Origin: Arcobacteraceae bacterium
GTDB lineage: Bacteria > Campylobacterota > Campylobacteria > Campylobacterales > Arcobacteraceae
Assembly (NCBI GenBank): GCA_963662945.1
Contig: OY759974.1
Span: 768,001-832,000, forward strand
Length of the DNA stretch: 64,000 nucleotides
Direction of reading: 5' to 3'
How positions within the stretch are numbered: the first letter of the stretch is position 1; each line of letters starts with the position of its first letter. The notes beneath the pieces are model-generated. The model did not search any database and was not told the DNA's origin. It worked only from the letters and a program-made list of their open reading frames with translations. Shown piece by piece: positions 3,997 through 59,548 of this stretch. A program made the position numbers and the translations under genes.

Positions 3997-4213
3997 AGTT
4001 CTTTTAGTTTGTTTTTTCTTTATACAAGCTGCTTATTGTGTAAACTATAGTGAGATGAGTACGCAAGAACTTCTTGCTATTATGGGATATGTTAAACCTG
4101 AAAATCAATCCAAATTTTTACAAGAACTAGAGAGTCGTAAAAAAAGTATGACTACTCAACAAAAAGAAATTTATAATAAAAACAAACAAAAAATAGACAA
4201 AAAAGAAAAATGA
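3989..4213 (+). CDS. Small exported protein, probably DUF1104 family
   Basis: Signal peptide then YSEMSTQELLAIMGYVKPENQSKFLQELESR, resembling Campylobacterota DUF1104 proteins (from memory). Confidence 0.6.
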   Translation: MTKVLLVCFFFIQAAYCVNYSEMSTQELLAIMGYVKPENQSKFLQELESRKKSMTTQQKEIYNKNKQKIDKKEK

Positions 4214-6025: not shown

Positions 6026-6348
6026 AAAAAATCATACTGCTTATTCTCATTTCAAATATTATGTTTGGAGAGATTTATCAAACAAACTGTCTTCCTTGCC
6101 ATAAAAAAATTGATGTAACGTTAGAAAAGCTTTTTTTTAGATATCTTTTAAAACATAGTAGTGAAAAAAATATCAAAAAATCACTCATAGCCTATTTAAA
6201 AAATCCAACAATGAAAACAACTATTATGCCTGAAGCATTCATTAAAAGATATGGTATTAAGAAAAAAACAACTTTAAATGATGAAGAGTTACAAAAAGCT
6301 ATAGATATTTATTGGGATACATACAAAGTTTTTGGAAAACTCAAATAA
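6019..6348 (+). CDS. Putative exported monoheme c-type cytochrome
   Basis: Signal peptide, CLPCH heme motif, candidate axial Met in IMPEAF. Confidence 0.7.
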   Translation: MVKKIILLILISNIMFGEIYQTNCLPCHKKIDVTLEKLFFRYLLKHSSEKNIKKSLIAYLKNPTMKTTIMPEAFIKRYGIKKKTTLNDEELQKAIDIYWDTYKVFGKLK

Positions 6349-6357
6349 ATTTCATAC

Positions 6358-6389
6358 TTCACAATCACTCCACAATTTTCTTTTATACT
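6358..6389 (+). promoter_or_regulatory. DccR-type direct repeat plus -10 box upstream of cytochrome c553
   Basis: TTCACA (6358-6363) N5 TCCACA (6369-6374) N9 TATACT (6384-6389). Confidence 0.55.
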
Positions 6390-6418: not shown

Positions 6419-6715
6419 ATGAAAAAGATAATTGCAACAGTGGCACTAATAGCTACAACAAGTTTATTCGCAAACGGTGGAGATGTTCTTTATAAAAAAT
6501 GTGTTGGTTGTCATGGAGTTAAAGCTGAAAAAGCAGCATTGGGAAAATCAAAAATTGTAGCAAATATGTCAAAAGAAGAGATTGTAAAAGCTTTACAAGG
6601 ATACAAAGATGGCACTTATGGTGGAGCTATGAAAGGGATTATGAGAGGACAAGTTGCTAGTCTTGAAACAAAAGATTTTGATGCACTTGCTGAAGACATA
6701 ATAAACAATAAATAA
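6419..6715 (+). CDS. Cytochrome c553-like class I cytochrome c
   Basis: AAGGAG RBS, signal peptide, CVGCHG, YGGAMKGIM axial Met region. Confidence 0.92.
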   Translation: MKKIIATVALIATTSLFANGGDVLYKKCVGCHGVKAEKAALGKSKIVANMSKEEIVKALQGYKDGTYGGAMKGIMRGQVASLETKDFDALAEDIINNK

Positions 6716-32400: not shown

Positions 32401-33011
32401 TTGAATAATTTGTTTATCAATATAATGTGATCAACAATTCCATGTCGCATAATTTCAAGGTAAAAATCATCACCAAACATCTCTTTATATTCTAATGCGA
32501 TTCGTTTTGCTTCAGCATATCCTTTTGCACCATTTTTAACATTTCGTTCATTATTTAAATTAAGATGCCAGTTAATCTCTCCTTGTAAACAAGCAGCAGT
32601 ACAAACTAATCCTTCACAATTATCTTTTAAAAGTTTTTTGTTAATTCTAGGGTAATAATAAAATCCATGCATATATGCTTGACTTGAAAGAAACATAAGG
32701 TTTTTATACCCAATATCATTTTTTGCATATAAACATAAGTGAAATCGTTGTTTAGTGGACTTATCTCCTATATCATCTTGATTATGTAGATACGCTTCCA
32801 TACCAATGATAGGTTTAATCCCCTCTTTTCTCATTGTGTTGTAAAAATCAATAGTACCAAACATATTACCATGATCAGTCATAGCAACACTAGTCATTCC
32901 TAGCTCTTTTACTTTTGCTGCTAATACTTTTATTTTATTGGCACCATCAAGCATTGAATATTCAGTATGAAGATGTAAATGTGTAAATTGTGGAGTTTCG
33001 TTATTTGACAT
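29464..33011 (-). pseudogene. dnaE: DNA polymerase III alpha subunit, split by a 1-nt deletion near 32428 (probably an assembly error and intact in vivo)
   Basis: PHP domain HLHLHTEYSMLDG in ORF 32397-33011; GRGSAAGS, MPDIDMDF, KFDFLGL, YGFNKSH in ORF 29464-32313. One added base after GAT-CA restores ...HGIVDQHYIDKQIIQLSLETGIKIVATNDTHY.... Confidence 0.93.
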
Positions 33012-43765: not shown

Positions 43766-43939
43766 CTATTTGTTGTAAGGAATGAAACTATTTGGCATAT
43801 TAGCATCTACACTATTTTTTATCATTGTGTATCCAAGCCCAATAGCCAATAATCCAGCTATTACTAAATAAACAATTTTTCTTTTTTGTGGAGATTCTTT
43901 TCCATCATAATCTTCAATTTGACTTAATGTTGGTTCCAT
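43766..43939 (-). CDS. Unannotated 57-aa single-TM protein
   Basis: Hand translation MEPTLSQIEDYDGKESPQKRKIVYLVIAGLLAIGLGYTMIKNSVDANMPNSFIPYNK*; AAGGA RBS, TATAAT at 43976-43971 and a TTAACA direct repeat upstream. Confidence 0.75.
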   Translation of the reverse strand: MEPTLSQIEDYDGKESPQKRKIVYLVIAGLLAIGLGYTMIKNSVDANMPNSFIPYNK

Positions 43940-43970
43940 TTTTATTTCCTTTTTTTAATTATTTATCCAA

Positions 43971-44002
43971 ATTATAAAATTTCTTTGTTAATCAGATGTT
44001 AA
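43971..44002 (-). promoter_or_regulatory. TTAACA direct-repeat promoter, copy 1 (57-aa gene)
   Basis: Minus strand TTAACA-TCTGA-TTAACA (44002-43986), 9 nt, TATAAT (43976-43971). Confidence 0.7.
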
Positions 44003-44034
44003 TTAACGATTAATTAACATTCCTATACTACCAT
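44003..44034 (+). promoter_or_regulatory. TTAACA direct-repeat promoter, copy 2 (OprC-like receptor)
   Basis: TTAACG-ATTAA-TTAACA (44003-44019), 9 nt, TACCAT (44029-44034). Confidence 0.7.
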
Positions 44035-44060
44035 TTTCATAAATTTTGAAAAGGAAAACA

Positions 44061-46073
44061 ATGCGAAAAAAAATAGTTTTATCAATGGCAGCTGCCCTTG
44101 TAATAAGTCTCCAAGCTGAAGATTTAGGTACTATAGAAGTACAAGAAGAAATAAATACAAAGGTTGTTGGTAACATAAGTACTGAGGAAGTTAAAAATGC
44201 AGATTTAGCAGAAGCTTTAGCAAAAAAATCTGCAAGTGTTTCTCTTATAAGAAGAAGTGGTATTGCAAATGATATCGTTCTTAGAGGTCAAAAAAGAGAC
44301 AATATCAAAGTAACTATTGATGATGGAATGGTTTGTGGAGCTTGTCCAAATAGAATGGATCCACCAACATCACATGTAATTACAACTATGGTTGATAGTG
44401 TAGAGATAAAAGAGGGACCATTTGATGTGACAGAATTTGGAACACTTAGTGGTGGAGTAAAAATTAAAACCGTAGAGCCAAAAGAAGGTTTACATGGAGA
44501 AATTGGTACAACTATTGGAAGTTATGGTTATAAAAAAGGTGTTGTAAGTGTATCTGGTGGAAATGATAAAATAAAAGCTTTATTTACATATTCAAAAGAA
44601 GAAAGTGATCAATATGAAGATGGCGATGGACATACATTAGCTGAACAAACTGCCTTAGTACAAAATCCTGCACAATATAATACTATGAATGATAATAGAT
44701 ATCTAGATGCTTATAAAGATATGAAAGCATATGAAAAAAGATCTATTATGGCAAAAGCAATTGCAAATATTACTGATTCACAAGAAGTTGAAATCAGTGC
44801 TACACAAAATCGAAGTGACGATATCCTTTATCCATCAAGTGGTATGGATGCACTTTACGATGATAGTAATCTTTATAATGTAAAATATACTGCTAGAGAC
44901 TTAGGGGATTTTTCAAAAAAATTAGAAATAAAAGCTTATAGAACAGATGTTGACCATCCTATGGCAATAGATTACAGAATAAAAAATAACTATGTGCCAG
45001 CAGGAAGTAAAGGATTGACAAATCACCTTACAACAGATGTTACTGGTGCAAAAATCATCAATACACTTGATGCTTTAAACAGAGAATTTACAATAGGTTT
45101 AGATACTAGTAATAGAAATTGGGATGGAGATTATTATAGTGACATTAATCCTTTTATAAGAAAAAGTATAAATGATACAGATACAATCAACAAGGCAATA
45201 TTTGTAAAATGTAAAAATCAATTAGATAAACTTACTCTAGAATTAGGTGTAAGATATGATAATACAACAGTTGACACAAATGGGGCAGATCAGGATAATA
45301 AATACACTGATTTCAGTGGAAATATTATGGCAACATATAATAGTGATGAAAATACAAAATATTTTATTGGATTAGGACAAGCTAGCCGTGTTCCAGATGC
45401 AAGAGAACTCTATTTTATAGCTTCTAATGGAACTAGTGTAGGTACTGAAACTTTAAATGCAACTACAAATAGAGAATTAGACTTCGGAACAGAGCATCAC
45501 TATAAAGATGGAAAAATAAAAGCAAAATTTTTCTATAGTGATTTACAAGATTATATCTATTATAGAAACACTGGTGCAGCAACAAATAAATTTGAAAATA
45601 TTGATGCTAAAATATATGGACTTGAACTTAGTGGTGCGTATTACATAAATGATCAGTTTACACTAGATGCCGGTTATACTTGGAAAAGAGGGAAAAAAGA
45701 CAACCCTATTGCAGGACAATCAGATAAAGACTTAGCAGATATTACACCACCAAAATTAACATTAGCACTTAATTATGACTATAATAATTATACAAATGCA
45801 ATGATAGAATTTATCAATGTATCATCATGGAAAAATTATGATAGTGACAATGGGGAGCAACATATTAATGGGTATAATGTAGTAAATATTAAAGCACAAA
45901 CAACAATTGCAAAAAACTTTGAAATTACTATAGGTATTGACAACCTTTTTGATAAAACTTATGCTGTTTCAAATACATATAGAGACTTAACTCTTTTAAG
46001 TGATGGTACAGAAGTAATGCTTCTTAACGAACCAGGAAGATATATCTACACAAGTTTAAAATATAAATTCTAA
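44061..46073 (+). CDS. TonB-dependent receptor, OprC/NosA-like putative copper transporter
   Basis: Signal peptide, DLGTIEV TonB-box-like segment, plug GACPNRMDPP (CxxxM), barrel VDHPM (HxM), NEPGR...YKF end; ATG 44061 after AAGGA. Confidence 0.85.
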   Translation: MRKKIVLSMAAALVISLQAEDLGTIEVQEEINTKVVGNISTEEVKNADLAEALAKKSASVSLIRRSGIANDIVLRGQKRDNIKVTIDDGMVCGACPNRMDPPTSHVITTMVDSVEIKEGPFDVTEFGTLSGGVKIKTVEPKEGLHGEIGTTIGSYGYKKGVVSVSGGNDKIKALFTYSKEESDQYEDGDGHTLAEQTALVQNPAQYNTMNDNRYLDAYKDMKAYEKRSIMAKAIANITDSQEVEISATQNRSDDILYPSSGMDALYDDSNLYNVKYTARDLGDFSKKLEIKAYRTDVDHPMAIDYRIKNNYVPAGSKGLTNHLTTDVTGAKIINTLDALNREFTIGLDTSNRNWDGDYYSDINPFIRKSINDTDTINKAIFVKCKNQLDKLTLELGVRYDNTTVDTNGADQDNKYTDFSGNIMATYNSDENTKYFIGLGQASRVPDARELYFIASNGTSVGTETLNATTNRELDFGTEHHYKDGKIKAKFFYSDLQDYIYYRNTGAATNKFENIDAKIYGLELSGAYYINDQFTLDAGYTWKRGKKDNPIAGQSDKDLADITPPKLTLALNYDYNNYTNAMIEFINVSSWKNYDSDNGEQHINGYNVVNIKAQTTIAKNFEITIGIDNLFDKTYAVSNTYRDLTLLSDGTEVMLLNEPGRYIYTSLKYKF

Positions 46074-46081
46074 TCAATAAC

Positions 46082-46100
46082 AAGAGGGGTTTCCCCTCTT
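46082..46100 (+). terminator. Hairpin after the OprC-like gene
   Basis: AAGAGGGG-TTT-CCCCTCTT. Confidence 0.65.
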
Positions 46101-46112
46101 AATAAAACCTCT

Positions 46113-46144
46113 TTAACACTTACTTAACATTTTTTTTGTAACAT
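46113..46144 (+). promoter_or_regulatory. TTAACA direct-repeat promoter, copy 3 (exbBD)
   Basis: TTAACA-CTTAC-TTAACA (46113-46129), 9 nt, TAACAT (46139-46144). Confidence 0.7.
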
Positions 46145-46167
46145 ATCCAAAAATTTATGGAGAATTT

Positions 46168-46605
46168 ATGAATATAGAGTTATTAAAAGAGATTGTAGAT
46201 TATGGAATTATTGGCCTCTTAGGTTTTATGAGTTTTCTCTCATTTTGGCTTTATATAGAAAGACTTTTATTTTATAAAAATATCAATATCAAAAATTATG
46301 CAAAAAAAGAACAACTCGAAATAGAACTTACAAACAATATCTCAATTATCTCTTCATTTGGTTCAAATGCACCATATATTGGACTTCTTGGAACTGTCTT
46401 TGGTATCATTATCACATTTTACACTATGGGTCAAAGTGGAGATATAGATGTAAAAACTATTATGAGTTCTTTAGGTCTTGCACTTAAAGCTACAGCTATG
46501 GGTCTTCTTGTAGCAATACCAGCAATAATGTTTTATAATCATTTAACAAGAAAAATTGAAGTTAAACTAGCACTTTGGGATATGGAGTTTAAAAGTGCAG
46601 CTTAA
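46168..46605 (+). CDS. exbB: TonB system energizer ExbB
   Basis: SNAPYIGLLGTVFGI, ALKATAMGLLVAIPA. Confidence 0.95.
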   Translation: MNIELLKEIVDYGIIGLLGFMSFLSFWLYIERLLFYKNINIKNYAKKEQLEIELTNNISIISSFGSNAPYIGLLGTVFGIIITFYTMGQSGDIDVKTIMSSLGLALKATAMGLLVAIPAIMFYNHLTRKIEVKLALWDMEFKSAA

Positions 46606-46975
46606 AAAGTTTGATTCTATAAATGTTGTACCATTTATAGATATTATGCTTGTACTTTTAGTCATTGTACTTACAACTGCATCTTTTGTAGCACGTGGCA
46701 TAATACCTGTAGACTTAAGTGAAGGAAAAAGTGCTCTAAAATTAACAGAACAAAAGATTATAACTATCACAATTAAAGACTCTGGAGAATTATTTCTAGA
46801 TAAAGAACTTACTACACATAAAAAAATTGAGGAAAAACTTTCACAACTTAAAACTTCAACACCTATTAGCATAAATTGTGATAAAAATGCAAAATTTGAG
46901 AACTTTGTTCAAGTCATTGATATCTTAAAATTAAAAAACTTCACAAATCTAAGTATTATTACAAAACAAGAATAA
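46595..46975 (+). CDS. exbD: TonB system protein ExbD
   Basis: INVVPFIDIMLVLLVIVLTTASF; GTG start overlapping exbB. Confidence 0.95.
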   Translation: MQLKKFDSINVVPFIDIMLVLLVIVLTTASFVARGIIPVDLSEGKSALKLTEQKIITITIKDSGELFLDKELTTHKKIEEKLSQLKTSTPISINCDKNAKFENFVQVIDILKLKNFTNLSIITKQE

Positions 46976-46994
46976 TCTTATTTATAACTTAAAA

Positions 46995-47026
46995 TTAACA
47001 TCTAATTAACACTTCTTAGTTATTAT
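46995..47026 (+). promoter_or_regulatory. TTAACA direct-repeat promoter, copy 4 (second receptor / DCCP operon)
   Basis: TTAACA-TCTAA-TTAACA (46995-47011), 9 nt, TATTAT (47021-47026); degenerate third repeat ATAACT at 46984. Confidence 0.72.
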
Positions 47027-47058
47027 TCGCAAAAAATTGGGAATGAAAAAGGATGTTA

Positions 47059-49185
47059 ATGAATAACAAGATATGTATATCACTTATCTGTGCACTTGCA
47101 CTAAGTGGAAATGCAGCAGATTTGGGTACTATAAGTGTTGAATCTTCAACAATTGATGATAAATTTGAAAGTAAAAAAACTGAAGTTTCAAATACAGCAA
47201 TTATAACTTCTGAAGATGTAGAGAAAATTCATGCTACTAATGTTGAAAATATACTTAATACAATACCAGGAATTACAGCTTCAAATGTAGGAAATGATAG
47301 AGTTAAGATACACATAAGAGGTATAGATAACCAAATGTATATGGGTGAAAAACCAGGAGTTGCTGTTGTAATTGATGGTGTACCAGTACAAGAAACAACT
47401 GGTAAAATTAATCTAGACCTCGATAATATTGCTTCAATTAAAGTAATCAAAGGAAGTGCAAGTTACCTTTATGGGAATGATGCAATTGCAGGTGCAATAG
47501 TTATAACAACAAAAAGACCAAAAGGTTTAAGTAGTTCAAAATTAGAAACAGAACTTGGTAGTTTTGGATTTAAAAGAATATTAGCTGGAACAAATCAAAG
47601 TTTAGAAAATGGTGCTTTTCAACTACAAGGTACTATACGAGATAGTGATGGTTATTGGGATGATGCATATTTAAAACATAAATCAATTAATGGTAAATAT
47701 CAACACTATCTAAGCGAAACAAGTGATTTAACATTTGGAGCAGATTATACAAAACGAGAAACAGGAGATGGTTCAAGTGTACATGGAGAAACACAATCTA
47801 TACTTAATCCTAAAAGTGTTACTGAAGTTTCTTATGCTGGTTATTATGATACAACACTGATTAAAACTTTTCTAACCTATTCTAATGATATTGATGAGAA
47901 TTCAAATTTTATGGTAAATGTCTCAAGATATGAAGACGATACTACTAACCTTTCTGGATCGACAGATACTAATGGTGATAATATTAATGATGACCACAAA
48001 ACTATATCTGATGAAAAATGGATTCAAAATACATTTAAAAGTGAATATAGAAGGTCTTTTGAGAAAATTGCAATTATGACTGGTATAGATTTAGCAAGAA
48101 ATGAACAAAAGAATAAAAGTATTGCAAATTTAACTGTTGGTGGTTTTAGTCCTCAAACAAAAGGAGATATTACAGGTGATTCTAATAATAATGAAGATAT
48201 CAATGCCATATATTTTGAAGTACAAAACCAATTAACGAACAATTTAACTTCAACAATAAATTTTAGGCATGATAATATAAAATATGATTATAAAAATAAT
48301 CTTGATATGACTCTAAATACTGCACCATCATATGATGCAAATACCTATAGAGTAGGATTTAATTATAAATTAAGTGACACAGATAATATTTACACAAGTT
48401 ATGCAACAGGATTTAGAGCACCAACAGCAGAGCAAATAAGTGGAAATATTGATAAACTTCAAGCAAATCCAACATTTGATATTCCAACTACTCTTGATAT
48501 AGAAACTACGAAGAATATAGAACTAGGAATTAGAGGAGACATCTCATCATTAAAATATGATGCTTCTATTTATCAACTTGATAGAAAAGACTATTTAGGT
48601 GTAAGAGCTGGTTCTTATATTAGAGCTTCTGATGATAAAGCAGATTTAGCCGTAGATAATCTGGGAGATATGAGAAGTAGAGGATTTGAATTAGCTCTTA
48701 ATAGTGATAGAAAAAAAGCCATCTCATTTTCAACTGCTTATACATATTTAGATGCAAAATTTAAAGAATATTCATTAAAACAATTAGTTCAAGACAATGT
48801 TTTTCCAATAGCCGATGTTTATCAAACAGTTAATTTAGCAGGAAAAAGAGTACCTAGAACATCAAAACATACTTTAAATATCACTGTTGACTTTAGACCA
48901 ATTGATGGGCTTACAATATCGCCAGAACTTATAGCAAAAAGTAGTTACTATGCAGATGAATTAAACAAATTCAAACAACCTGGCTATGAAATTATAAATT
49001 TAAGATCAGAATATAAAATAAATAAATCTCTGGAAATTTTTGCTAAAATAGAAAACCTTTTAGATAAGAACTACAATCAGTTCGTAAATGTAAGCTCAAG
49101 TGATATTGCAAATAATATGGAAGATGCAACAATCCGTGTTGCACCACCTAGAGCATATTATGCTGGACTTAGATACAAGTTTTAA
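47059..49185 (+). CDS. TonB-dependent receptor, unknown substrate
   Basis: Signal peptide, DLGTISV, plug IRG...VVIDGVP...IKVIKGSASYLYGNDAIAGAIVITT, GFRAPT, ENLLDK, terminal YKF; start 47059 or 47053. Confidence 0.92.
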   Translation: MNNKICISLICALALSGNAADLGTISVESSTIDDKFESKKTEVSNTAIITSEDVEKIHATNVENILNTIPGITASNVGNDRVKIHIRGIDNQMYMGEKPGVAVVIDGVPVQETTGKINLDLDNIASIKVIKGSASYLYGNDAIAGAIVITTKRPKGLSSSKLETELGSFGFKRILAGTNQSLENGAFQLQGTIRDSDGYWDDAYLKHKSINGKYQHYLSETSDLTFGADYTKRETGDGSSVHGETQSILNPKSVTEVSYAGYYDTTLIKTFLTYSNDIDENSNFMVNVSRYEDDTTNLSGSTDTNGDNINDDHKTISDEKWIQNTFKSEYRRSFEKIAIMTGIDLARNEQKNKSIANLTVGGFSPQTKGDITGDSNNNEDINAIYFEVQNQLTNNLTSTINFRHDNIKYDYKNNLDMTLNTAPSYDANTYRVGFNYKLSDTDNIYTSYATGFRAPTAEQISGNIDKLQANPTFDIPTTLDIETTKNIELGIRGDISSLKYDASIYQLDRKDYLGVRAGSYIRASDDKADLAVDNLGDMRSRGFELALNSDRKKAISFSTAYTYLDAKFKEYSLKQLVQDNVFPIADVYQTVNLAGKRVPRTSKHTLNITVDFRPIDGLTISPELIAKSSYYADELNKFKQPGYEIINLRSEYKINKSLEIFAKIENLLDKNYNQFVNVSSSDIANNMEDATIRVAPPRAYYAGLRYKF

Positions 49186-49199
49186 AAGAGTAAAATAAC

Positions 49200-49859
49200 T
49201 TGGAACTTACCCCATATCTCTCTATATTTCTTATAGGACTTAGTTTTGGAGCAACGGCATGCATGTTTTCATGTATGCCGTTTCTTACTCCAATATTGGT
49301 AAAGAGTTCTAACAATATTAAAGAATCTTTAGGTGTAATGATTCCTTTTAGTTTAGGAAGAATTTTCACTTATACCATGATTGCTATTTTAGCATTTGCA
49401 AGTTCTTTATTCATAAAAGAGCTTTTAAAAAACAATACACTTTTGAGTTATATTTTAGGAACAGTTACTATTATCTTAGGTTTCACAATGCTTTATAATA
49501 GCTATAAAAACAATAAAGGATGCGGTATCCATAAACCTATAGTAAAAGAACAAAGTTTTTCAAAACTAGGTTTTTTTACTATGGGTGCAACTATATCTAT
49601 AAATCTATGTACACCTGTAATTTCACTGATAACAGTTTCAAGTAGCACTACTACAATCTATTCAGCAATCGCTTTTGGAATAGCTTTTGGTGTTGGGGCT
49701 GTTTTATTTACACTGTTATTTTACGGATTTTTTTTCTCTACACTTATTAGAGGATTGCTTGAACAATTTAACCAGTATAAAAAACATGTAGAAGTTATAG
49801 CTTCACTGTTTTTAATACTTGTTGGTATTTTAATAATCAGTGGCAAGTTGTCACTATAA
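49200..49859 (+). CDS. DsbD_2/UreH-like (TauE/SafE-type) multi-TM membrane protein
   Basis: About six TM helices; TACMFSCMP near the N-terminus, FSLGRIFTY, NLCTP, AFGIAFG; TTG start. Confidence 0.7.
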   Translation: MELTPYLSIFLIGLSFGATACMFSCMPFLTPILVKSSNNIKESLGVMIPFSLGRIFTYTMIAILAFASSLFIKELLKNNTLLSYILGTVTIILGFTMLYNSYKNNKGCGIHKPIVKEQSFSKLGFFTMGATISINLCTPVISLITVSSSTTTIYSAIAFGIAFGVGAVLFTLLFYGFFFSTLIRGLLEQFNQYKKHVEVIASLFLILVGILIISGKLSL

Positions 49860-49868
49860 AGGAACAAA

Positions 49869-52592
49869 ATGGTTGATTTTATCAAAAGAGATAACAATGA
49901 TATGTTTAAAAACCCTATTTTTAGGTTTTTATTTAAAAATACAAAATTTCTTTTAGTTTTAAGAATAGCAGTTACACTGCTTTTCTTTTATGCTGTTTAT
50001 TTTGGATTTGTACATCCTACTTCTGAAGAGAACATCTTCACAGGTGCAGTATTTTGGGGAATATTCTGGGCACTATTTATGGTAGTGACTCTTTCAACTT
50101 TTGGAAGAATATTTTGTGGTATTTGTCCACATGGATTTTTAGGAAAATATATTACAAAATTTGGTTTGAAAAAAACCATGCCAAACTGGATGCAAAATAG
50201 ATATATTGGTATCACTTTACTAGTAATTGGTTGGTGGGGAATTTATTATACATTTCCTTCATTTTGGAAAACACCAATTGGAACTGCTTCTATGTTTGGA
50301 GGGATGACATTAATTGCTTTTATTTTTTATTTTATCTATAAAGAGATGAGTTATTGTAAATATATTTGTCCTATTGGAACACTTACAAGAGCATATGACA
50401 AATTATCATTTACAAAACTAGAAACTTATACTGACTCTTGTAAGGATTGTAGAACTTTTGAATGTGCTACAGCTTGTCAATACGATTTAAAACCATTTAC
50501 CTTTGCAAAGAAAAATCAAACTGATGATTGTACCTTATGTATGGATTGTGCTGTATCTTGTGAAGCTGTTAAATTTAAACTTACAAAACCAGCAGAACAA
50601 CTAGGAAGTAAACTAAAAATTTTAAGTGCTGAAGTTTGGACGTATATTCTTATCTTTGCTTCTATTCCTGTATCTATGGGATTTGCACATGGTTTAAATA
50701 GAACTAAAATAGCTGATGAGTTTCTATGGAATAAAACGGCTGCTTTTTTTGGTATGAATGAATATGCAGGTGGATTTGCTTTCCTATATGCTGTTATTTT
50801 TAGTGTATTTTTCGCTACATTTGGAATCTATGTAGCATCTAAAATATTAAAAAAAGAATACAGTTCTACCTTTACTAATTTAGGTGTTGCTTTTATTCCA
50901 CTTTTTATCTTTGCATCACTAGGGCATACATTAGAAACTTTTTTTATCAAAGATTATGTAACAATAGTAGATGGATTTGCACAAGGTTTTGGTTTTAATG
51001 TTGAAGTGGAAGCTTTAGCAAAAAGAGGTGATGGATGGCTTCACTATTTTGGATTATTTAAATGGATAGGAATTATCTGGTCATTTATTCTTCTTTACAA
51101 AAGAATGAAAATGATTGATGCTACAAAATTACGAAAAATATTTGGATACTTTTTTGCTTCATTAATGATTCTTTTTTACATAGGATTAAATATCTATACA
51201 GGATATGTATTTTCTAAATATGGGGCAAAATCACGAAGTGGACATTCTCACGGTGGAAATGGAAAAACAATGTTCCAAAGTGTACCTTTTAAACAAGCTA
51301 CACTTTTACAAGTGGGAAAAGATAAAACAAGTGGTGTAGTATGTGGGATGAATCTTCCTATGTTTTATAAAACAAACCATAGTGCGATACTTGATGGACA
51401 GGTGCGACAATATTGTTCAATACATTGTTTAGCTGAAGATTTACGAATAAAAAATTTAGCTTTGGAAAATATTCAAGTTGTAGATGTAACCAGTTTAAAA
51501 TTCATCCCAGTTAAAGATGCTTTTTATGTGGTTGGAAGTAAACAGCTAGGAACTATGAGTAGAACTAGTAAATATGCTTTTGCTACAGAAAAAGATGCTT
51601 TAGAATTTGTTCAAAAATACGGTGGAGAAATTGTAAATTTTAGAAAAGCAGTTTATATTGCAATGCAAGATTTTTCAAAAAAACCTTATGGAACTCATAC
51701 AGAAAAAACTGCTTTAGATTTGACACAACCATTATATCTTACACTTAAAGACCCCTCTGCATCTAAAGAAAAGTCAGGTGGACATATGCACGGTGGTAGT
51801 GGTGGAAAACCTAAACCTGAAGGATATATCCCCACACAAAAAATATATCTTTCTACTTTAAATAATAAAAGTGTATCTCCTAAAAATATAGAGTTTTTTT
51901 ACTATGATATAAAACAAAAGAAAAAAGATATTATCAAAAATAGTTCAAGAGGAAAAGAAACATATAGTTTTGAAGTACCAAACAATGGATACTACAATCT
52001 TTTTGCTGTAGCACAAAGTACAAAAGATGATAAAAGTTTTTATAATGTAGCAAAACTTGAATATCTTCAAGGAAAACATGGTATTGAAGATATTTATGAT
52101 GAAAAACTTAAAAAAAATCTTGAACAAAACCTTACTAAAATTGATTTAATAAGAATAAAAAATGAAGATGAAAATAGCTTTTTTTATAAATTTAAAATGG
52201 GTGAAACTCTAAAGTTTCAAGCAATATTTGATCAAAAACCTTTAGCAAATGCAAAAATACATATCAAACTCCAAAGTGGTTGGGAAAAAACTTCAATTAC
52301 AAATGATAAAGGTGAAGTAGAACTTACAATTATAAGAGATTATTTTCCACCTTGGAATAAATTTGAAAAACGATTTAAACAAGATTTATTAATAACTTTA
52401 GAACATAATATAGAGAATACAAAATATACACTCACCTACCCTGCTTCTTTTTATCCAAACTCTAGTGATTATGAATCGTATGCTTATGCACTGTTACTTA
52501 TAACACTTACACTACTTATATCTGGTATTGTTATTTATAGATTTAGAAAAAATAGAACAAAACCTTTTAGTGAGGTAAACTTTAATGAGTAA
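49869..52592 (+). CDS. Fusion: NapH/CcoG-like membrane 4Fe-4S protein + NosL-like domain + DUF4198-like domain + C-terminal TM
   Basis: GRIFCGICP, YCKYICP, CKDCRTFECATAC, CTLCMDCAVSC; GHSHGG; VCGM...YKTNH...RQYCSIHC...YVVGS...GTM; GHMHGG; KPLANAKI...TNDKGEV; final hydrophobic helix. Confidence 0.75.
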   Translation: MVDFIKRDNNDMFKNPIFRFLFKNTKFLLVLRIAVTLLFFYAVYFGFVHPTSEENIFTGAVFWGIFWALFMVVTLSTFGRIFCGICPHGFLGKYITKFGLKKTMPNWMQNRYIGITLLVIGWWGIYYTFPSFWKTPIGTASMFGGMTLIAFIFYFIYKEMSYCKYICPIGTLTRAYDKLSFTKLETYTDSCKDCRTFECATACQYDLKPFTFAKKNQTDDCTLCMDCAVSCEAVKFKLTKPAEQLGSKLKILSAEVWTYILIFASIPVSMGFAHGLNRTKIADEFLWNKTAAFFGMNEYAGGFAFLYAVIFSVFFATFGIYVASKILKKEYSSTFTNLGVAFIPLFIFASLGHTLETFFIKDYVTIVDGFAQGFGFNVEVEALAKRGDGWLHYFGLFKWIGIIWSFILLYKRMKMIDATKLRKIFGYFFASLMILFYIGLNIYTGYVFSKYGAKSRSGHSHGGNGKTMFQSVPFKQATLLQVGKDKTSGVVCGMNLPMFYKTNHSAILDGQVRQYCSIHCLAEDLRIKNLALENIQVVDVTSLKFIPVKDAFYVVGSKQLGTMSRTSKYAFATEKDALEFVQKYGGEIVNFRKAVYIAMQDFSKKPYGTHTEKTALDLTQPLYLTLKDPSASKEKSGGHMHGGSGGKPKPEGYIPTQKIYLSTLNNKSVSPKNIEFFYYDIKQKKKDIIKNSSRGKETYSFEVPNNGYYNLFAVAQSTKDDKSFYNVAKLEYLQGKHGIEDIYDEKLKKNLEQNLTKIDLIRIKNEDENSFFYKFKMGETLKFQAIFDQKPLANAKIHIKLQSGWEKTSITNDKGEVELTIIRDYFPPWNKFEKRFKQDLLITLEHNIENTKYTLTYPASFYPNSSDYESYAYALLLITLTLLISGIVIYRFRKNRTKPFSEVNFNE

Positions 52593-53601
52593 AATCAAAC
52601 AACTTGTAAATAATATGAATCTTATCAAAGTAAGATTTACTATTCAATTACTGACTTTTATTTTATTTGTTTATGGTGGTTATTTTGCCATTGATTTTGG
52701 TTCAAGACTGCCTATTTTTGCCTGTCCTTATAATAAAGAAGCAGCTGGAGCTTGTTATTTAATTCCATTACAACATCAGTTAGGTATGCCAGCACAAATA
52801 TTACTTGGTGGGGCTGGAATTGCAGTTATTACTGGATTTTTAACATTTCTTTTTTGGTTTATATTTCTAAATAAAGCTTGGTGTGGATATGTATGTCCTT
52901 TTGGAACATTACAAGATTGGCTAACAATGCTTAGAAAAAATATGGGTATACGTTTTTCAACATATACACAAAATCAATTTGAAAAACTTTCAAAAATAAA
53001 ATATATCCTTTTAGCTATTGTTATTTTAGTACCTCTTCTTATGGGTGTTGGCGTTTTTGGAAGAGAATGGTCTGCTGCATTTTGTCAAATCTGTCCAGCA
53101 CGAATCATCTCTCCTATGTTTAGTGGAGATTTCTCTCAATGGACAATAGACTTTTCTACTAAAACAGCCATGGTATTAACTGCTATTGGGATGATATTTG
53201 CTGGATTATTTTTAATTGGTAGTTTTGTAAAAAAAAGATTCTTTTGCTTCTTTTGTCCGATGAGTGCCTTGCATTATATTTTTTCAAAGTTCTCAATTGT
53301 AAGTTTACAAAAAGATGGAAGTAAATGTACACGATGTGGAGATTGTTATGCTGTATGTGATATGCAGATAAAAGATATAGCAGATGATGTTACAAGTACA
53401 AATATCTTAAGAGATGATTGTATTTTATGTTTAAAATGTATAGCTGCATGTCCGGAAGATGATGCACTGCATTTTGATATATTAAAATTCAAAACTTTTA
53501 GCTCTACAAAACAAGGTTTTGAAAAGAGAATGGGAATAGAAAGACCAAAACAAGCTGAGGCGAAGTTTCCTCGAAAAGGATTAAATGATGAGCAACAATG
53601 A
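52585..53601 (+). CDS. NapH/MauN-like membrane 4Fe-4S ferredoxin
   Basis: WCGYVCPFG, FCQICP, FFCFFCP, CTRCGDCYAVC, CILCLKCIAACP. Confidence 0.85.
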   Translation: MSKIKQLVNNMNLIKVRFTIQLLTFILFVYGGYFAIDFGSRLPIFACPYNKEAAGACYLIPLQHQLGMPAQILLGGAGIAVITGFLTFLFWFIFLNKAWCGYVCPFGTLQDWLTMLRKNMGIRFSTYTQNQFEKLSKIKYILLAIVILVPLLMGVGVFGREWSAAFCQICPARIISPMFSGDFSQWTIDFSTKTAMVLTAIGMIFAGLFLIGSFVKKRFFCFFCPMSALHYIFSKFSIVSLQKDGSKCTRCGDCYAVCDMQIKDIADDVTSTNILRDDCILCLKCIAACPEDDALHFDILKFKTFSSTKQGFEKRMGIERPKQAEAKFPRKGLNDEQQ

Positions 53602-54868
53602 GAATCATAAAATAGAAACACCACTTGAAAAACAAAACAGACATAAAGCTATGGAAGCAATTAAGGTAATTAATACTTTAAAAGAAGAGTTTAAATCTCC
53701 TATAAAATCTATGGATTATTTTTATACACTTTTTGAAGATGTATATTGTCATCAAAAATCACTTCATGCTGATAAAGTAAAAGTGGGAACCATGTGTATT
53801 CAAATACCAAGTGAAATTATATATGCACTTGATGGTGTTCCTATTCGACTTTGTAACGGATTTTATACAGATGATGAGCTAGGAAGTGATCTTATGCCTC
53901 AAAAATCTTGTCCACTGGTTAAAGCAAGTGTTGGGCACTTGTCAAGTCAAAATTTAAGTGACAAACCACATATGATTTATAGTCCTACAACTTGTGATCA
54001 AAAAACAAAAGCTGGTGCAACTATTGAAAGTTTTGGATATGAGGTAGTTGATGTAGATTTCCCAAGAACAAAAGAGAGTGAGGTAAGTCGTGAATTTTTT
54101 AGAAGAAGTATCAGAAATTTTGCCATAGATTTATCAAAAAAAACTGGAAAAAAACTCACTAAAAAAAATTTAAAAAGCTCCATTGGAAAAGTTGGTTATG
54201 CACAATCTTTATATCATAGACTATCTGATTTAAGAAAAAATAAAAATGTACCAATATTAGGTGTTGATATGTTTTTAGTTACCAATGCTTTTTTCTTTGA
54301 TAAAATTGACAATTGGATAAAAGCTACAGAAATTTTACTGCATGACTTAGAGTTAAGGGTAAAAGAAAATATTCATGTAGCAGGAAAAATCAGTCCAAGA
54401 ATAGTTTATACAGGTTCACCACCTATTTTCCCAAATTATAAAATACCATTACTTATTGAAGAATCAGATGCAGTTATAGTTGCAGATGAAACTTGCAGTT
54501 CAAATAGAATGTTCAACGATCGAGTTGCAGTGGATGAATGGTTTGTAAATGATATGTTGGATTCTATGGCAGATAAATATCTTAAGGCTTGTACTTGTCC
54601 AATATTTACAAAAAATGATGACCGTATTCGAAGAATTATAGAACTTGTTCGTTCATATGATGCAGATGGTGTTATCTATCAAGCTTTTGCTGGTTGTACT
54701 GTATATGAGTTAGAACAAAGAAGTGTTTTAGAAGCTATGGAAAAAGAGGGGATCTCTATACTTTATTTAGAAAGTGATTATTCACCTAGCCAAAGTGGAC
54801 AGCTAAGTACCAGAGTTGAAGCATTTATAGAATCACTCAAAATGAAAAAAAGAAAAAAAGGAAAATAG
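53585..54868 (+). CDS. 2-hydroxyacyl-CoA dehydratase-family Fe-S protein, putative double-cubane cluster protein (DCCP)
   Basis: Single 427-aa chain with Cys71 (GTMC), Cys90 (RLC), Cys109 (SCPLVK), Cys137 (TTCD), Cys304 (DETC), Cys336/338, Cys371, and the family C-terminus ESDYS...GQLSTRVEAFIE. Confidence 0.8.
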   Translation: MMSNNENHKIETPLEKQNRHKAMEAIKVINTLKEEFKSPIKSMDYFYTLFEDVYCHQKSLHADKVKVGTMCIQIPSEIIYALDGVPIRLCNGFYTDDELGSDLMPQKSCPLVKASVGHLSSQNLSDKPHMIYSPTTCDQKTKAGATIESFGYEVVDVDFPRTKESEVSREFFRRSIRNFAIDLSKKTGKKLTKKNLKSSIGKVGYAQSLYHRLSDLRKNKNVPILGVDMFLVTNAFFFDKIDNWIKATEILLHDLELRVKENIHVAGKISPRIVYTGSPPIFPNYKIPLLIEESDAVIVADETCSSNRMFNDRVAVDEWFVNDMLDSMADKYLKACTCPIFTKNDDRIRRIIELVRSYDADGVIYQAFAGCTVYELEQRSVLEAMEKEGISILYLESDYSPSQSGQLSTRVEAFIESLKMKKRKKGK

Positions 54869-54869
54869 T

Positions 54870-55673
54870 ATGAAATATTTTGCTGGAATCGATATAGGTT
54901 CAACTGCCATTAAAATCTCAATAGCTGATGAAAATAAAAATCTTGTAGGACACAAAATCAGTGCAAGTGGAAGTATGTTTTATAAATATGCTCATGAAAC
55001 TTTAGATGCACTTGTTTCAGAAATAGGGATAAAAAAAGAAGATATTATATACACTGTAGCAACTGGTTATGGAAGAAAAATATTTAAAGAAGCTGATGAA
55101 AATATTAGTGAAATTACTGCAAATGCGATAGGTGCACGAGCTGCCGCTAAAGAATATGGAGAGATTAAAACTATTATTAATATTGGTGGTCAAGATAGTA
55201 AAGCAATTTCACTAGATGAAGAGGGAAATGTAACAAATTTTGCTATGAATGACAGATGTGCAGCTGGTACTGGAAAATTTCTTGATGCATGTGCTATGAA
55301 TCTTGAAATAACAGTAGAAGAACTTGGAGATAAACATTTTGCCTCAACTGGAACACCATTATCAATCAATAGTACTTGTGCAGTATTTGCAGAGAGTGAA
55401 ATTATAGGACTTTTAGGGAATAGTCATAGTGTCGAAGATATTGTATGTGGTGTACACTATTCTATTGCAAAAAGAATTGTAAAACTTGTAAAAAGAGTTG
55501 GTGTCAAAGAAGGAGTATATTTTGATGGTGGTCCAGCACTTAATACAGGATTAGTCAATGCACTTGAAAATGAACTTAGTTGTAAGATATTTATTCCTCA
55601 ATATCCACAAATCACTACATCTTATGGAGCAGCGATTATTGGAGTAGATTCTTATAATTACGAAAATGAATAA
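54870..55673 (+). CDS. ASKHA-type [4Fe-4S] ATPase activator (HgdC/BadG family; DCCP reductase-like)
   Basis: GIDIGST, ATGYGR, IGGQDSK, MNDRCAAGTG, INSTCAVFAESE, GGPA, YGAA. Confidence 0.92.
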   Translation: MKYFAGIDIGSTAIKISIADENKNLVGHKISASGSMFYKYAHETLDALVSEIGIKKEDIIYTVATGYGRKIFKEADENISEITANAIGARAAAKEYGEIKTIINIGGQDSKAISLDEEGNVTNFAMNDRCAAGTGKFLDACAMNLEITVEELGDKHFASTGTPLSINSTCAVFAESEIIGLLGNSHSVEDIVCGVHYSIAKRIVKLVKRVGVKEGVYFDGGPALNTGLVNALENELSCKIFIPQYPQITTSYGAAIIGVDSYNYENE

Positions 55674-55677
55674 TTAA

Positions 55678-58600
55678 ATGTTTGACAAAACTATAAAATT
55701 TTTTATTGAAAATTATAAAATAAACTATGCTTTATTTATATTCTTATTTATTGTCGGAATCTATTCTTATACAAAAATTCCTAAAGAAGTACAACCAACT
55801 ATTGAACCTAGCACTATAAGGGTAAGCGGAAATTACAGTGGAGCTTCTGTTGACATTTTAAATAAAATGGCTGTCATACCTTTAGAAAATGAAGTAAAAA
55901 ATATTGTTGGTGTAGATAATATTATTACAAATATCAATCCAGGTAAATTTTCTATCACTTTAGAACTTGATAAATACGAGAAAAAAGAGGATATAAAAGA
56001 AAATGTAAAAGATGCAATTGCAATGATTATCTCTGATTTACCAGCAGATATGGATGAACCTTTGATTAAAGCTGTTGCTCATGCACGTTCATTAATGTAT
56101 GTTTCAGTTCTTTCTACAAAAATCTCTAGAGATGATCTTTTAAAAATTGCAAAAGATTTAAAAACAACTCTTTTAGGCATCCCTTTTATTTCAGATATTA
56201 CAATATTTGGTGAATCAGATGAATATTATGAAATACAAATTGATGAAAAAAAAATAGAAGCTTTTGGACTAGAAAAAAAAGATATCTCTTCAATAATTGC
56301 TGAACTCTCTTATACTTTTCCAGCAGGAAAAATGGAAGGGAAAAAAAATCAATTTTATCTTTCAACTGCAAATGGGAAAAAAAGTGCTGAAAACTTAGCA
56401 AATACACTTTTAAAAATAAATGATAAAACAATCTATTTTAAAGATATAGCTACCATTACAAAACGTTATGAAGATTCTTCAACACTTGCTAGTATGAATG
56501 GGAAAGGCGCTATTACACTTGCTATCTCACAAAATCCAAGAGGTGATGCCATAACATTATCAGAACAAGTGAGAGATGTACTTGATAAATCAAAAAAAGC
56601 AAATATTACTTTTGATATTAAAAGAGATAATTCATTTCAAGTAAAAGAGAGTTTAAATATAGTTTTCTCAAATATCATTTTTGGAATACTATTAATTTGT
56701 TTATTTACTATTGTTCTTATTAATTCCCGTATGGCATTAGTTATTATTATGGGTATACCAACTTCTTTTGTTATAGGTGCAATCTATTTTTATTTTACAG
56801 GATATAGTATTAATGTACAATCACTTGTAGGAGTACTTTTAGCAATTGGTATTATTGTTGATGATGCAATTGTTGTAAGTGAAAATATTCAACAATATAT
56901 TGAACGTGGCTATCCACCAAAAGAAGCTGCATATTTGGGAACAAAAGAGATGGCAAAACCAGTTTTTTGGGCATCTGTAACTACTCTTTTCTCATTTATA
57001 CCATTGTTAATGATTAGTGGTAGAATGGGTGAAATTATTCAGCTTATTCCTATAGCATTTAGTGCACTTATTTTTGCTTCACTTATTGAGTCATTCATCT
57101 TTTTACCTATACATGCTTCCCATATTTTAAATAATAATTCAAAAACCTTATCATGGGAAAAAAGCAAAAATATTTACACTAAAATTTTACATAACTTGAT
57201 GAAATATAAAAAAAGTTTTTTACTGATTTTTATTATCAGCGTTCCATTACTCATATTTTTTAGTGCAAAGCATTCAAAATTTCATATGTTTCAAAAATTT
57301 GATTCATCAAATGTAAACATTACCTTTAAAGGGAATAAAAATATGACACTTGAAGAAACATCTTTAATGGTACGTCAAATAGAACAAGACCTTTTAAAAT
57401 CCAAAGAGAAATTTTTTATAAAAAATGTAAGTTCAACAGCTGGTCATAGAAGAACAGCAACGGGAGAAACAGAAATTTATCCTTATGTTGGGAATATTAC
57501 AGTTGAACTTTATGAAAAAAAACCAAGTAATTTTTTCGAAGCATATATTAGCCCTTTGTTTAGTATTTATTATGAAAAAGAGGGACGAATACGAACCCTT
57601 CCATCTAAAGTTGTATCAAAACAATTGCGAGGTTGGTTAAAAGAACAACATTATAAAAGAAAATATAAATTAGAGCAAATAATGGTTGTTGAAAATAGAA
57701 TGGGAGCAACAAAAGCTGATATTAGAATTGGGTTAGTCAGTAATGATTACCAAAAAGCTTTACAAGGGGTAGATGAACTTCAAAAAGAGATTGAAAATAT
57801 AAAAGGGGTTAAATATAGTGGGAATAATATTAAATTTGGGATTGATGAACTGAAATTTCATATTAATAGCTATGGAGAATCACTTGGTGTAACAGAAAAA
57901 TATCTTGGTAATTTCTTAGCAAATGTCTATATGGATAAAAAAATAGCAACAATTTATGGTACAAATGAATCATTTGAGGTTAAATCAAAATCACTTTATA
58001 GTGATAATTTTGATTACTTTAAAAATATCACTATACCTTTAAAAGATTCAAGAGTAGTACACTTGCACGAGATATGTGATATATCTACCATAAAATCACT
58101 TGAGAAATTAGTCAAAGATAATGGTATTACTACATTTTATGTTTTTGCAAACGTTGATAATGATATCATCACTTCAAGTGAGGTTTTAGAAAAAATACAA
58201 CCAACAATAAAGAAACTAAAACAAAATGGTATAAAATTTATTTTCAAAGGGGAACAAGAGCAAAAGAAAAAACTAGAAATAGAGATGCTTCTATCAATAC
58301 TTTTAGCTCTTAGCTTAATATTTTTATCACTTCTTTATCTTTTTAACTCCATTAAAGAAACTCTTTTAGTGATGTCTGTTATTCCATTTTCTATGCTTGG
58401 GCTTTATATGGGACATTTTATTTTAGGATTACATATAACAGTTCCATCACTTATTGGTGCAATTGGACTTGCTGGTGTTATTGTTAATGATGGAATTATT
58501 ATGATGGACTCTATTAAAAAATCAACAACCCAAAAAGAGTTTTTTCACAATGCTGCTAAAAGATTTAGACCAATTATTTTAACCTCTATTACTACAATTG

Positions 58601-58758
58601 TTGGATTGTTTACACTTATCTTTTTTGCAACTGGTATGGCTGTTAGTTTTCAACCAATGGCTGTAACAATAGGGTTTGGACTTCTTTGGGGGACTATTTT
58701 AAATCTTTTATATTTACCTGTAATGTATGGATATTTTAATAATAAGCATTTAAAGTGA
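55678..58758 (+). CDS. RND superfamily (AcrB/CusA-like) transporter
   Basis: 1026 aa, 1+5 TM repeat topology, GIIVDDAIVVSENI, GVIVNDGII, RFRPIILTSITT. Confidence 0.92.
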   Translation: MFDKTIKFFIENYKINYALFIFLFIVGIYSYTKIPKEVQPTIEPSTIRVSGNYSGASVDILNKMAVIPLENEVKNIVGVDNIITNINPGKFSITLELDKYEKKEDIKENVKDAIAMIISDLPADMDEPLIKAVAHARSLMYVSVLSTKISRDDLLKIAKDLKTTLLGIPFISDITIFGESDEYYEIQIDEKKIEAFGLEKKDISSIIAELSYTFPAGKMEGKKNQFYLSTANGKKSAENLANTLLKINDKTIYFKDIATITKRYEDSSTLASMNGKGAITLAISQNPRGDAITLSEQVRDVLDKSKKANITFDIKRDNSFQVKESLNIVFSNIIFGILLICLFTIVLINSRMALVIIMGIPTSFVIGAIYFYFTGYSINVQSLVGVLLAIGIIVDDAIVVSENIQQYIERGYPPKEAAYLGTKEMAKPVFWASVTTLFSFIPLLMISGRMGEIIQLIPIAFSALIFASLIESFIFLPIHASHILNNNSKTLSWEKSKNIYTKILHNLMKYKKSFLLIFIISVPLLIFFSAKHSKFHMFQKFDSSNVNITFKGNKNMTLEETSLMVRQIEQDLLKSKEKFFIKNVSSTAGHRRTATGETEIYPYVGNITVELYEKKPSNFFEAYISPLFSIYYEKEGRIRTLPSKVVSKQLRGWLKEQHYKRKYKLEQIMVVENRMGATKADIRIGLVSNDYQKALQGVDELQKEIENIKGVKYSGNNIKFGIDELKFHINSYGESLGVTEKYLGNFLANVYMDKKIATIYGTNESFEVKSKSLYSDNFDYFKNITIPLKDSRVVHLHEICDISTIKSLEKLVKDNGITTFYVFANVDNDIITSSEVLEKIQPTIKKLKQNGIKFIFKGEQEQKKKLEIEMLLSILLALSLIFLSLLYLFNSIKETLLVMSVIPFSMLGLYMGHFILGLHITVPSLIGAIGLAGVIVNDGIIMMDSIKKSTTQKEFFHNAAKRFRPIILTSITTIVGLFTLIFFATGMAVSFQPMAVTIGFGLLWGTILNLLYLPVMYGYFNNKHLK

Positions 58759-58767
58759 TATTTAAAA

Positions 58768-58799
58768 TTAACACTTAATTAACACTTCTTTTATAAAAT
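58768..58799 (+). promoter_or_regulatory. TTAACA direct-repeat promoter, copy 5 (tonB)
   Basis: TTAACA-CTTAA-TTAACA (58768-58784), 9 nt, TAAAAT (58794-58799). Confidence 0.72.
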
Positions 58800-58831: not shown

Positions 58832-59548
58832 TTGAATATAAAAAGATATTTTAATTCGTTTTTTGTAGCTTCTATATTCTATAGTTTCTTAATTATTACT
58901 CTTCTTTATTCATTTGAAGAAGTCAATATTGCACCTTCAAAAACACAACATTCAATCCAAAATGTCAAATTTACCCTTATTAATTTACCAAAAGAAATAG
59001 AAAAACCTGAAGTTGAAAAACAAGAGATTGTTAAAAAAGAACCTCAACCTAAACAAATAGAACCAAAAGTTGTTAAAAAAATTAATCCTAAAAAAATATC
59101 TCCTAAAAAAATTGTTAAAAAAATAGAACCAAAAGTTGAAAAAAAAGAAAAAGAAATTGTTAAAAAAACAGAAAAGATAAAAAAACAAATTGTTGCAAAT
59201 CAAATTAAAAAAAGTGACTCTACTGAAAAAAAAGAAACTGTAAAAACTGATTTAAAACAATTAAAAATGAAACAACATAAATATTATTCTCAAATCAAAC
59301 AAACAATTGATAAAAATAAATCATATCCTCAAGTTGCTGTACGAAGAGGAATTCAAGGTGAAGTAAAAATACAATTTACAATATCAAAAGATGGTGAGTT
59401 ACTTTCATATAAAATATTAGATGGACAAAAAATATTTTTTAAGTCTATCAGTGAAGCTATACAAAATAGTTTCCCTCTTATTCCTCCAAATGATATTTTT
59501 ACATCAAACCTAGATTTAAAATTAACATTACACTATAAGTTGTATTAA
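58832..59548 (+). CDS. tonB: TonB energy transducer
   Basis: AAGGAG RBS and TTG start, N-terminal TM, Lys/Glu/Pro-rich linker, YPQVAVRRGIQGEVKIQFTI. Confidence 0.9.
   Translation: MNIKRYFNSFFVASIFYSFLIITLLYSFEEVNIAPSKTQHSIQNVKFTLINLPKEIEKPEVEKQEIVKKEPQPKQIEPKVVKKINPKKISPKKIVKKIEPKVEKKEKEIVKKTEKIKKQIVANQIKKSDSTEKKETVKTDLKQLKMKQHKYYSQIKQTIDKNKSYPQVAVRRGIQGEVKIQFTISKDGELLSYKILDGQKIFFKSISEAIQNSFPLIPPNDIFTSNLDLKLTLHYKLY

Follow-up and report, generated by a model that had tools for sequence, protein, structure and literature searches.

Five copies of a direct repeat, TTAACR-N5-TTAACA (R, A or G; N, any nucleotide), each followed after exactly nine nucleotides (N9) by a TAnnnT hexamer resembling a -10 element, were found in a 64-kb stretch of an Arcobacteraceae genome (contig OY759974.1, positions 768,001 to 832,000 of the forward strand; hereafter the window, numbered from its first letter). 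We consider it fairly probable, on the sequence evidence laid out below, that these 32-nt sites (boxes 1 to 5) are bound by a response regulator of the OmpR/PhoB family that activates a TonB-powered, probably copper, uptake regulon. All five were re-read letter by letter and stand exactly where the preliminary description had placed them. Box 1 (TTAACA-N5-TTAACA, N9, TATAAT; 43971..44002, minus strand) is the predicted promoter of a gene for a 57-amino-acid (57-aa) membrane protein, and box 2 (TTAACG-N5-TTAACA, N9, TACCAT; 44003..44034, plus strand) that of a gene for a TonB-dependent receptor (receptor 1); as had been claimed, the two are back to back and divergent, with their junction at 44002/44003. 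On the plus strand, box 3 (N9, TAACAT; 46113..46144) is the predicted promoter of exbB-exbD, box 4 (N9, TATTAT; 46995..47026) that of a seven-gene operon running from a second TonB-dependent receptor (receptor 2) to an RND permease, and box 5 (N9, TAAAAT; 58768..58799) that of tonB. Every box is followed, on the strand that it occupies, by a gene start 20-35 nt past the -10 hexamer.

The base composition of the window (25-34% G+C) and its protein matches both point to Arcobacteraceae. Enrichment in the window was measured against 100 dinucleotide-preserving shuffles of the full 64 kb. TTAACR-N5-TTAACA occurred 5 times, against a shuffle mean of 0.12 with 0 of 100 shuffles reaching 5, and the full 32-nt pattern including TAnnnT likewise had 5 occurrences, the shuffles averaging 0.00. 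A weight matrix built from the sites returned the same five above 14 bits, compared with 0.25 in shuffles. Allowing up to one mismatch added no site in the window, and the pattern with two mismatches was not enriched there (31 found, 41 expected); therefore the strict form alone is special, and weaker sites are not callable from the window alone.

Related loci were gathered with an alignment of 16 homologues of a 907-aa protein encoded in the box 4 operon. Of the 193 genome loci that matched, the best 80, each with flanks of at most 10 kb per side, were used in all comparisons with relatives (individual loci carry L numbers). Sulfurimonas denitrificans, which is cultivable, is among the bacteria with a listed homologue. 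They came from Arcobacteraceae, Sulfurimonas, Sulfurovum, Sulfurospirillum, Nitratifractor and Hydrogenimonas. A scan of relatives, as had been proposed, found 110 exact dimers in 55 of the 80 loci, whereas local shuffles of these loci averaged 1.15 and never exceeded 3 (20 runs). At a threshold of at least 15 bits, a weight matrix found 148 sites, compared with 0-2 in 5 shuffles, and 144 of the 148 had a same-strand gene start within 250 nt downstream. The downstream gene was of the receptor 2 type at 69 sites, exbB at 22, an unnamed gene at 11, of the receptor 1 type at 10, a response regulator gene at 8, a gene for the 57-aa protein at 7 (boxes precede its homologues in L001-L005, L007 and L056), DsbD_2 at 7, of the NosL type at 6 and tonB at 4; the remaining 4 sites had no gene start within 250 nt. 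When 19 receptor-2 promoters were aligned, the invariant columns were the half-sites (by selection) and two -10 positions only, and the DNA flanking the boxes had diverged. Because the box recurs before orthologous genes while nearby intergenic DNA has diverged, the comparison supports the view that these sites form a predicted regulon across Campylobacterota relatives.

Boxes in relatives were also seen before genes of other kinds, namely those for an LpxR-like outer-membrane protein, a 134-aa cytochrome c, stand-alone NosL-like proteins and additional DsbD_2 proteins (L023:406-1493, L023:4647-5106, L031:21031-22421, L019:18015-18908 and L040:21362-22150). These are predicted to be lineage-specific additions to the regulon.

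The geometry of the box is as strict as its sequence. Among pairs of TTAACA in the 80 loci, 103 were spaced by N5 and at most 3 by any other distance from 0 to 24, except for N16 (n=9), which arises from three phased repeats; inverted pairs of half-sites numbered at most 7 at any spacing. TAnnnT stood exactly 9 nt past the second repeat in 5/5 window sites and in 91 of 115 sites overall, and at other offsets in at most 12 sites. Six of the exceptions at N9 were upstream members of triple repeats, and most others carried an AAnAAT-like hexamer at that distance. Within the -10 hexamer, T was found at position 27 in 94, A at position 28 in 111 and T at position 32 in 106 of the 115 sites; the extended half-site consensus is aaTTAACAc, and the box spans approximately -38 to -22. 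The assertion that head-to-tail repeats one helical turn apart cover the -35 region was thereby upheld, with a strict 11-bp period and a fixed N9 distance to the -10.

Longer arrays with the same 11-bp period were observed in five loci, with three phased TTAACA repeats in L002 (18860-18887), L011 (7006-7033), L020 (1102-1129) and L080 (7814-7841) and four in L073 (7822-7860). Such triple and quadruple repeats suggest higher-order binding of the regulator.

Fifteen of the loci carry, within or beside the cluster, a response regulator of about 220 aa belonging to one clade (hereafter the linked regulators). In 8 of them (L023, L036, L040, L065, L067, L069, L070 and L073) a box stands 17-80 nt before the regulator's own gene, which suggests autoregulation. 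Response_reg and Trans_reg_C domains were present in 8/8 linked regulators tested, and the closest solved relatives of these proteins are ordinary members of the OmpR/PhoB family; the cut-offs of curated families (PhoB, CopR/CusR, PmrA and OmpR among them) were reached by 0 of 5 linked regulators scanned. The partner kinases of nine loci (L016, L019, L027, L031, L036, L040, L068, L073 and L077) are 278-288 aa long and have two membrane helices joined by a loop of about 10 residues, with no outer domain, and no PAS or PhoU-related Pfam match was obtained for this kinase of about 280 aa. Kinases of other sizes were found in L023 (385 aa) and L032 (352 aa). Clustering of the remaining neighbouring open reading frames gave six families present in at least 5 loci, none of them a regulator, and OmpR/PhoB-type proteins are the sole transcription-factor family repeatedly found adjoining the cluster in the fetched loci. 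The preliminary description had posited a two-component activator of the OmpR/PhoB type; the family assignment is supported by geometry and by linkage in relatives, and activation is predicted only from the geometry.

The genes behind the boxes were annotated as follows. The 57-aa protein (43766..43939, minus strand) is a single-pass membrane protein of no known family. On the plus strand, receptor 1 (44046..46073, likely start ATG 44061) is OprC/NosA-like and keeps the CxxxM and HxM copper ligands; a terminator-like hairpin (46081..46101) separates it from box 3, which is followed by exbB (46168-46605) and exbD (46595-46975; together 46168..46975). The seven genes of the box 4 operon, all on the plus strand, are tightly packed: receptor 2 (47053..49185), whose closest solved relatives are PqqU and YncD, and then, over 49200..58758, a DsbD_2 membrane protein (49200-49859), the 907-aa protein in which NapH-like polyferredoxin, NosL and DUF4198-like parts are fused (49869-52592), a NapH-like ferredoxin (52585-53601), a double-cubane-type reductase (53585-54868; 318 bits, cut-off 350), its activase ATPase (54870-55673) and the RND permease (55678-58758). 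The last unit is tonB (58832..59548, plus strand). Between 43.7 and 59.5 kb no regulator gene was found, in keeping with the earlier statement that the regulator is not encoded within the cluster. No description of a double-cubane reductase and activase within a TonB/NosL/polyferredoxin operon was found in open-access text.

Evidence for copper comes from receptor 1 and from the NosL domains. Among solved structures, OprC of Pseudomonas was the only match to receptor 1, and in the alignment C100, M104, H304 and M306 of receptor 1 (675-aa frame) fall at OprC positions 143, 147, 323 and 325, the stretch bearing HxM aligning weakly (0.9 bits). Excerpts of PMC8610252 give those four OprC residues as its copper site and describe OprC/NosA as repressed by copper. 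Receptor 1 scored 188 bits against TIGR01778, for which the cut-off is 472, and is therefore a distant OprC/NosA relative. GACPNRM was retained in 10/12 and HPM in 11/12 receptor-1 homologues, and CPxRM was present in 0/70 receptor-2 homologues. Receptor 1 is, by these signatures, a predicted OprC/NosA-type copper importer in Campylobacterota. Because its ligands are kept and NosL domains accompany it, the regulon probably serves copper acquisition and would be induced when copper is short.

The mechanism that we infer, from binding and activation to the copper signal and the regulator's identity, would run as follows. One response regulator of the OmpR/PhoB family would occupy each box as a head-to-tail dimer and sit where a -35 element would be expected (approximately -38 to -22), 9 nt before the -10. 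In its phosphorylated form the regulator would recruit RNA polymerase by class II activation, with transcription starting about 6-8 nt past the -10, near 43964 (minus strand), 44041, 46151, 47033 and 58806, and the five units of the window (the 57-aa protein, receptor 1, exbB-exbD, the seven-gene operon and tonB) would be induced together for copper acquisition under copper scarcity. The regulator would be an orthologue of the cluster-linked regulator of relatives, usually paired with the kinase of about 280 aa, and in the genome of the window its gene would lie beyond the cluster and probably beyond the window as well. The strict -10 phasing and the boxes before regulator genes speak for a tandem dimer acting by class II activation.

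Several points weigh against this mechanism. A box immediately upstream is missing for seven of the 15 linked regulators, and L029 has a box, devoid of TAnnnT at N9, before an operon whose regulator is only distantly related and comes from another clade. No regulator of the linked type was visible in the window, and a search with the linked kinase returned nothing from the contig of the window among the matches listed, all of which were at least 62% identical. The weight matrix applied to the relatives was trained on exact sites, so that among its hits only the 38 non-exact sites are independent of training. The case for copper is built on one receptor and the NosL domains, and we know of no copper role for the RND permease, the double-cubane reductase or receptor 2. 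To our knowledge, promoters of Campylobacterota have weak or no -35 elements; a missing -35 is therefore no proof that an activator is needed, and repression by a protein placed at -38 to -22 is conceivable too. We regard it as rather improbable that the boxes are the operator of such a repressor, whether of the same regulator family or another protein, that blocks polymerase until a signal arrives. A base-exact distance to the -10 in 91/115 sites would be needless for occlusion and is expected of an activator that touches polymerase, and PhoB-type activation has as its textbook arrangement tandem head-to-tail sites that end about 10 nt ahead of the -10. The site does overlap the core promoter, and the near-consensus -10 hexamers TATAAT, TAAAAT and TATTAT might work unaided in a phylum with weak -35 elements, both of which repression would accommodate. 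Copper repression of OprC/NosA, as given in excerpts of PMC8610252, would also suit a repressor. A box before the regulator's own gene fits positive feedback, yet it is compatible with repression as well. The hexamers might instead be the -35 element of an alternative sigma factor of the extracytoplasmic function (ECF) type, a suggestion to which we give almost no credence: they stand 9 or 20 nt from TAnnnT, which is unworkable given the known pair spacing of 16-17 nt, TAnnnT itself resembles a housekeeping -10, and the hexamer is conserved in two and at times three or four copies in phase. The AAC core does look like that of ECF -35 elements, and TonB-dependent receptors are often under ECF control, but no gene for a sigma or anti-sigma factor was found in the window cluster or among the six conserved neighbour families.

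Regarding which protein would bind the boxes, the preliminary description had named a candidate at 4210-4875 (plus strand), a DNA-binding response regulator and the only one found in the window. It precedes a 395-aa kinase (4838-6025, plus strand) and a cytochrome c-like gene that ends the operon (6019-6348, plus strand). That this regulator and its kinase act on the five TTAACA boxes is unlikely in our assessment. It is the sole OmpR-family regulator found in the window, and in a tree of 25 regulators it falls into the same 19-row group as all linked ones (support 94/98); inside that group the tree gives a polytomy and a long branch (1.12), and it places the window regulator neither inside nor outside the linked set. 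Its identity to the linked regulators is 39-45%, not far from the 42-55% among linked regulators of different families. Against it, it belongs to a separate orthogroup whose members are 66-72% identical from Arcobacteraceae to Sulfurimonas. The recognition helix points away from the boxes too: it reads LRTYIKxLRK in the window regulator and 6/7 fetched orthologues and LRTYVKxLRK in the seventh, and so differs from the R-(V/L)-(Y/H)-(I/V)-(N/T) that every box-linked regulator has, even where two of them share no more than 36-40% identity. The genomic surroundings are mixed. A Na/Pi symporter adjoins the window regulator (1912-3735), and 47-50% identical homologues adjoin, or lie close to, the cluster or its linked regulator in L019 (3665-5431), L031 (3557-5326), L027 (1512-3275) and L073 (5920-7683), a shared neighbourhood that may reflect common ancestry or coincidence. 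The cytochrome c-like protein of the operon is weakly similar to proteins of L012 and L032 (25-28% identity; E values 2e-6 and 1e-4), and the L012 protein, like the related 134-aa cytochrome c of L023, is encoded downstream of a box. Genomes matched to L004, L005 and L056 have a 67% identical orthologue of the window regulator, and the fetched loci themselves are without a regulator. No TTAACA box, however, was found near the window regulator operon, and the kinase encoded there has an outer domain of about 110 aa, compared with none in nine linked kinases. Directly past the operon (4210-6348) and before a cytochrome c gene (6419-6715) stands TTCACA-N5-TCCACA-N9-TATACT (6358..6389, plus strand), which has the same geometry and a different half-site; it is the sixth-best matrix site in the window, with one exact match against 0.00 expected. 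The change of A to C at half-site position 3 occurs in none of the listed non-exact TTAACA sites. The candidate is the only OmpR-family regulator found in the window, but another orthogroup, another helix and another adjoining box speak against its role at the five boxes; it is probably a paralogue with the 6358 site as its own predicted box. A search for TYCACA-N5-TYCACA (Y, C or T) in the 80 loci gave 4 matches, of different geometry and near unrelated regulators, and was uninformative.

The arrangement of the boxes was compared with that of known systems. The Pho box of Escherichia coli PhoB comprises 18 bp followed by 10, and the half-sites of Bacillus subtilis PhoP are TT(A/T/C)ACA-N5 repeats. 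As in those systems, the -35 element gives way to two direct repeats of 11-bp period, the second ending some 9-10 nt short of the -10, and a tandem dimer of a winged-helix regulator, proposed here from sequence, would activate; the half-site TTAACA of the window fits the PhoP consensus. The window box differs in measuring 17 bp followed by N9, its targets are TonB-dependent uptake and redox genes rather than pst/pho, and the linked regulators score 81-120 bits against TIGR02154 (PhoB), for which the cut-off is 296. Assignment to the Pho regulon (PhoB/PhoR) was rejected on two counts, the missed PhoB equivalog cut-off and the TonB/copper/redox targets; the sole link to phosphate is the Na/Pi symporter beside some regulators. 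Heavy-metal regulators of the CopR/CusR type were likewise rejected, the linked regulators scoring 89-126 bits against TIGR01387 (cut-off 279) and nine linked kinases having a loop of about 10 residues without a periplasmic sensing domain. Within the phylum, the half-sites are TTCAC for DccR and GTTTC for PhosR, and differ from the five TTAACA boxes; that of DccR resembles the 6358 box beside the window regulator. DccRS and PhosRS are OmpR-type systems of Campylobacter jejuni (excerpts of PMC9449129), and share with the system proposed here a Campylobacterota OmpR-like regulator that activates a small set of envelope genes from direct repeats close to the -10. Receptor 1 is predicted to be of the same TonB-dependent copper importer type as OprC/NosA of Pseudomonas, with the four ligands kept and, there, a response to copper (excerpts of PMC8610252); unlike its Pseudomonas counterpart, it shares its box with exbBD, tonB, receptor 2, NosL/polyferredoxin, the double-cubane reductase and the RND permease. 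Control of TonB-dependent uptake by a two-component system, rather than by Fur or an ECF sigma factor, is described in excerpts on the hemin system of Porphyromonas (PMC3764172), VgrRS of Xanthomonas (PMC5231390) and Leptospira (PMC2266917), which as far as those excerpts go concern other phyla and other metals or ligands. For the box and the cluster reported here, no description was found in open-access text. We know of no motif shared with the Porphyromonas, Xanthomonas or Leptospira systems.

How free-living Campylobacterota such as Arcobacter, Sulfurimonas and Sulfurovum regulate transcription is little known, as is copper acquisition by Gram-negative bacteria. Activation by a tandem winged-helix protein over the -35 region is already a textbook mechanism; what the box would offer is a sharply defined cis-element that ties an unnamed two-component family to an uncharacterised, widespread cluster of sulfur-cycling bacteria, predicts the transcription units of that cluster and its probable signal, and could be used for regulon annotation in hundreds of genomes. 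A broader picture, which we put forward as speculative and on balance doubtful, is that of an undescribed, Campylobacterota-wide copper-starvation regulon. Its sensorless kinase would read copper indirectly, through the transport machinery under its control or through the 57-aa protein as an MgrB-like connector; an OprC-type receptor would be coupled to a module of polyferredoxin/NosL and an ATP-driven double-cubane reductase, which in sulfidic habitats would release copper or reduce it, and in some lineages an undescribed riboswitch-like leader before the gene for receptor 2 would be stacked on this control.

Such a leader was observed in relatives only. A structured RNA is common to 11 leaders, 126-157 nt long, that separate the box promoter from a gene of the receptor 2 type (L033:6964-7115, L028:7619-7771, L015:7074-7230, L011:2123-2272, L011:4568-4706, L011:7049-7174, L014:7196-7339, L031:7094-7226, L027:7016-7154, L007:7065-7221 and L010:4634-4783); the leaders of the window itself are short and without the structured element. 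The RNA contains a hairpin whose stems vary between loci yet stay complementary. In its loop stands a conserved AGUUUGGCGAC-like sequence, which a deletion removes in L011c; past the hairpin come a GGCGAC-like linker and a long-range helix that closes shortly before the ribosome-binding site. These structures were obtained from single-sequence folds, RNAalifold having given no pairs on a poor MAFFT alignment. Rfam 15 yielded no family at gathering score in the window or in 7 long-leader loci, and one leader searched against Rfam at E <=10 gave chance-level matches only. The element may be a new riboswitch or leader element.

Elsewhere in the window, the gene for DNA polymerase III alpha (29464-33011, minus strand) was found to be split into two frames that overlap at 32397-32430, with the PHP domain in one frame and the remainder in the other, which is either a frameshift or a sequencing error.

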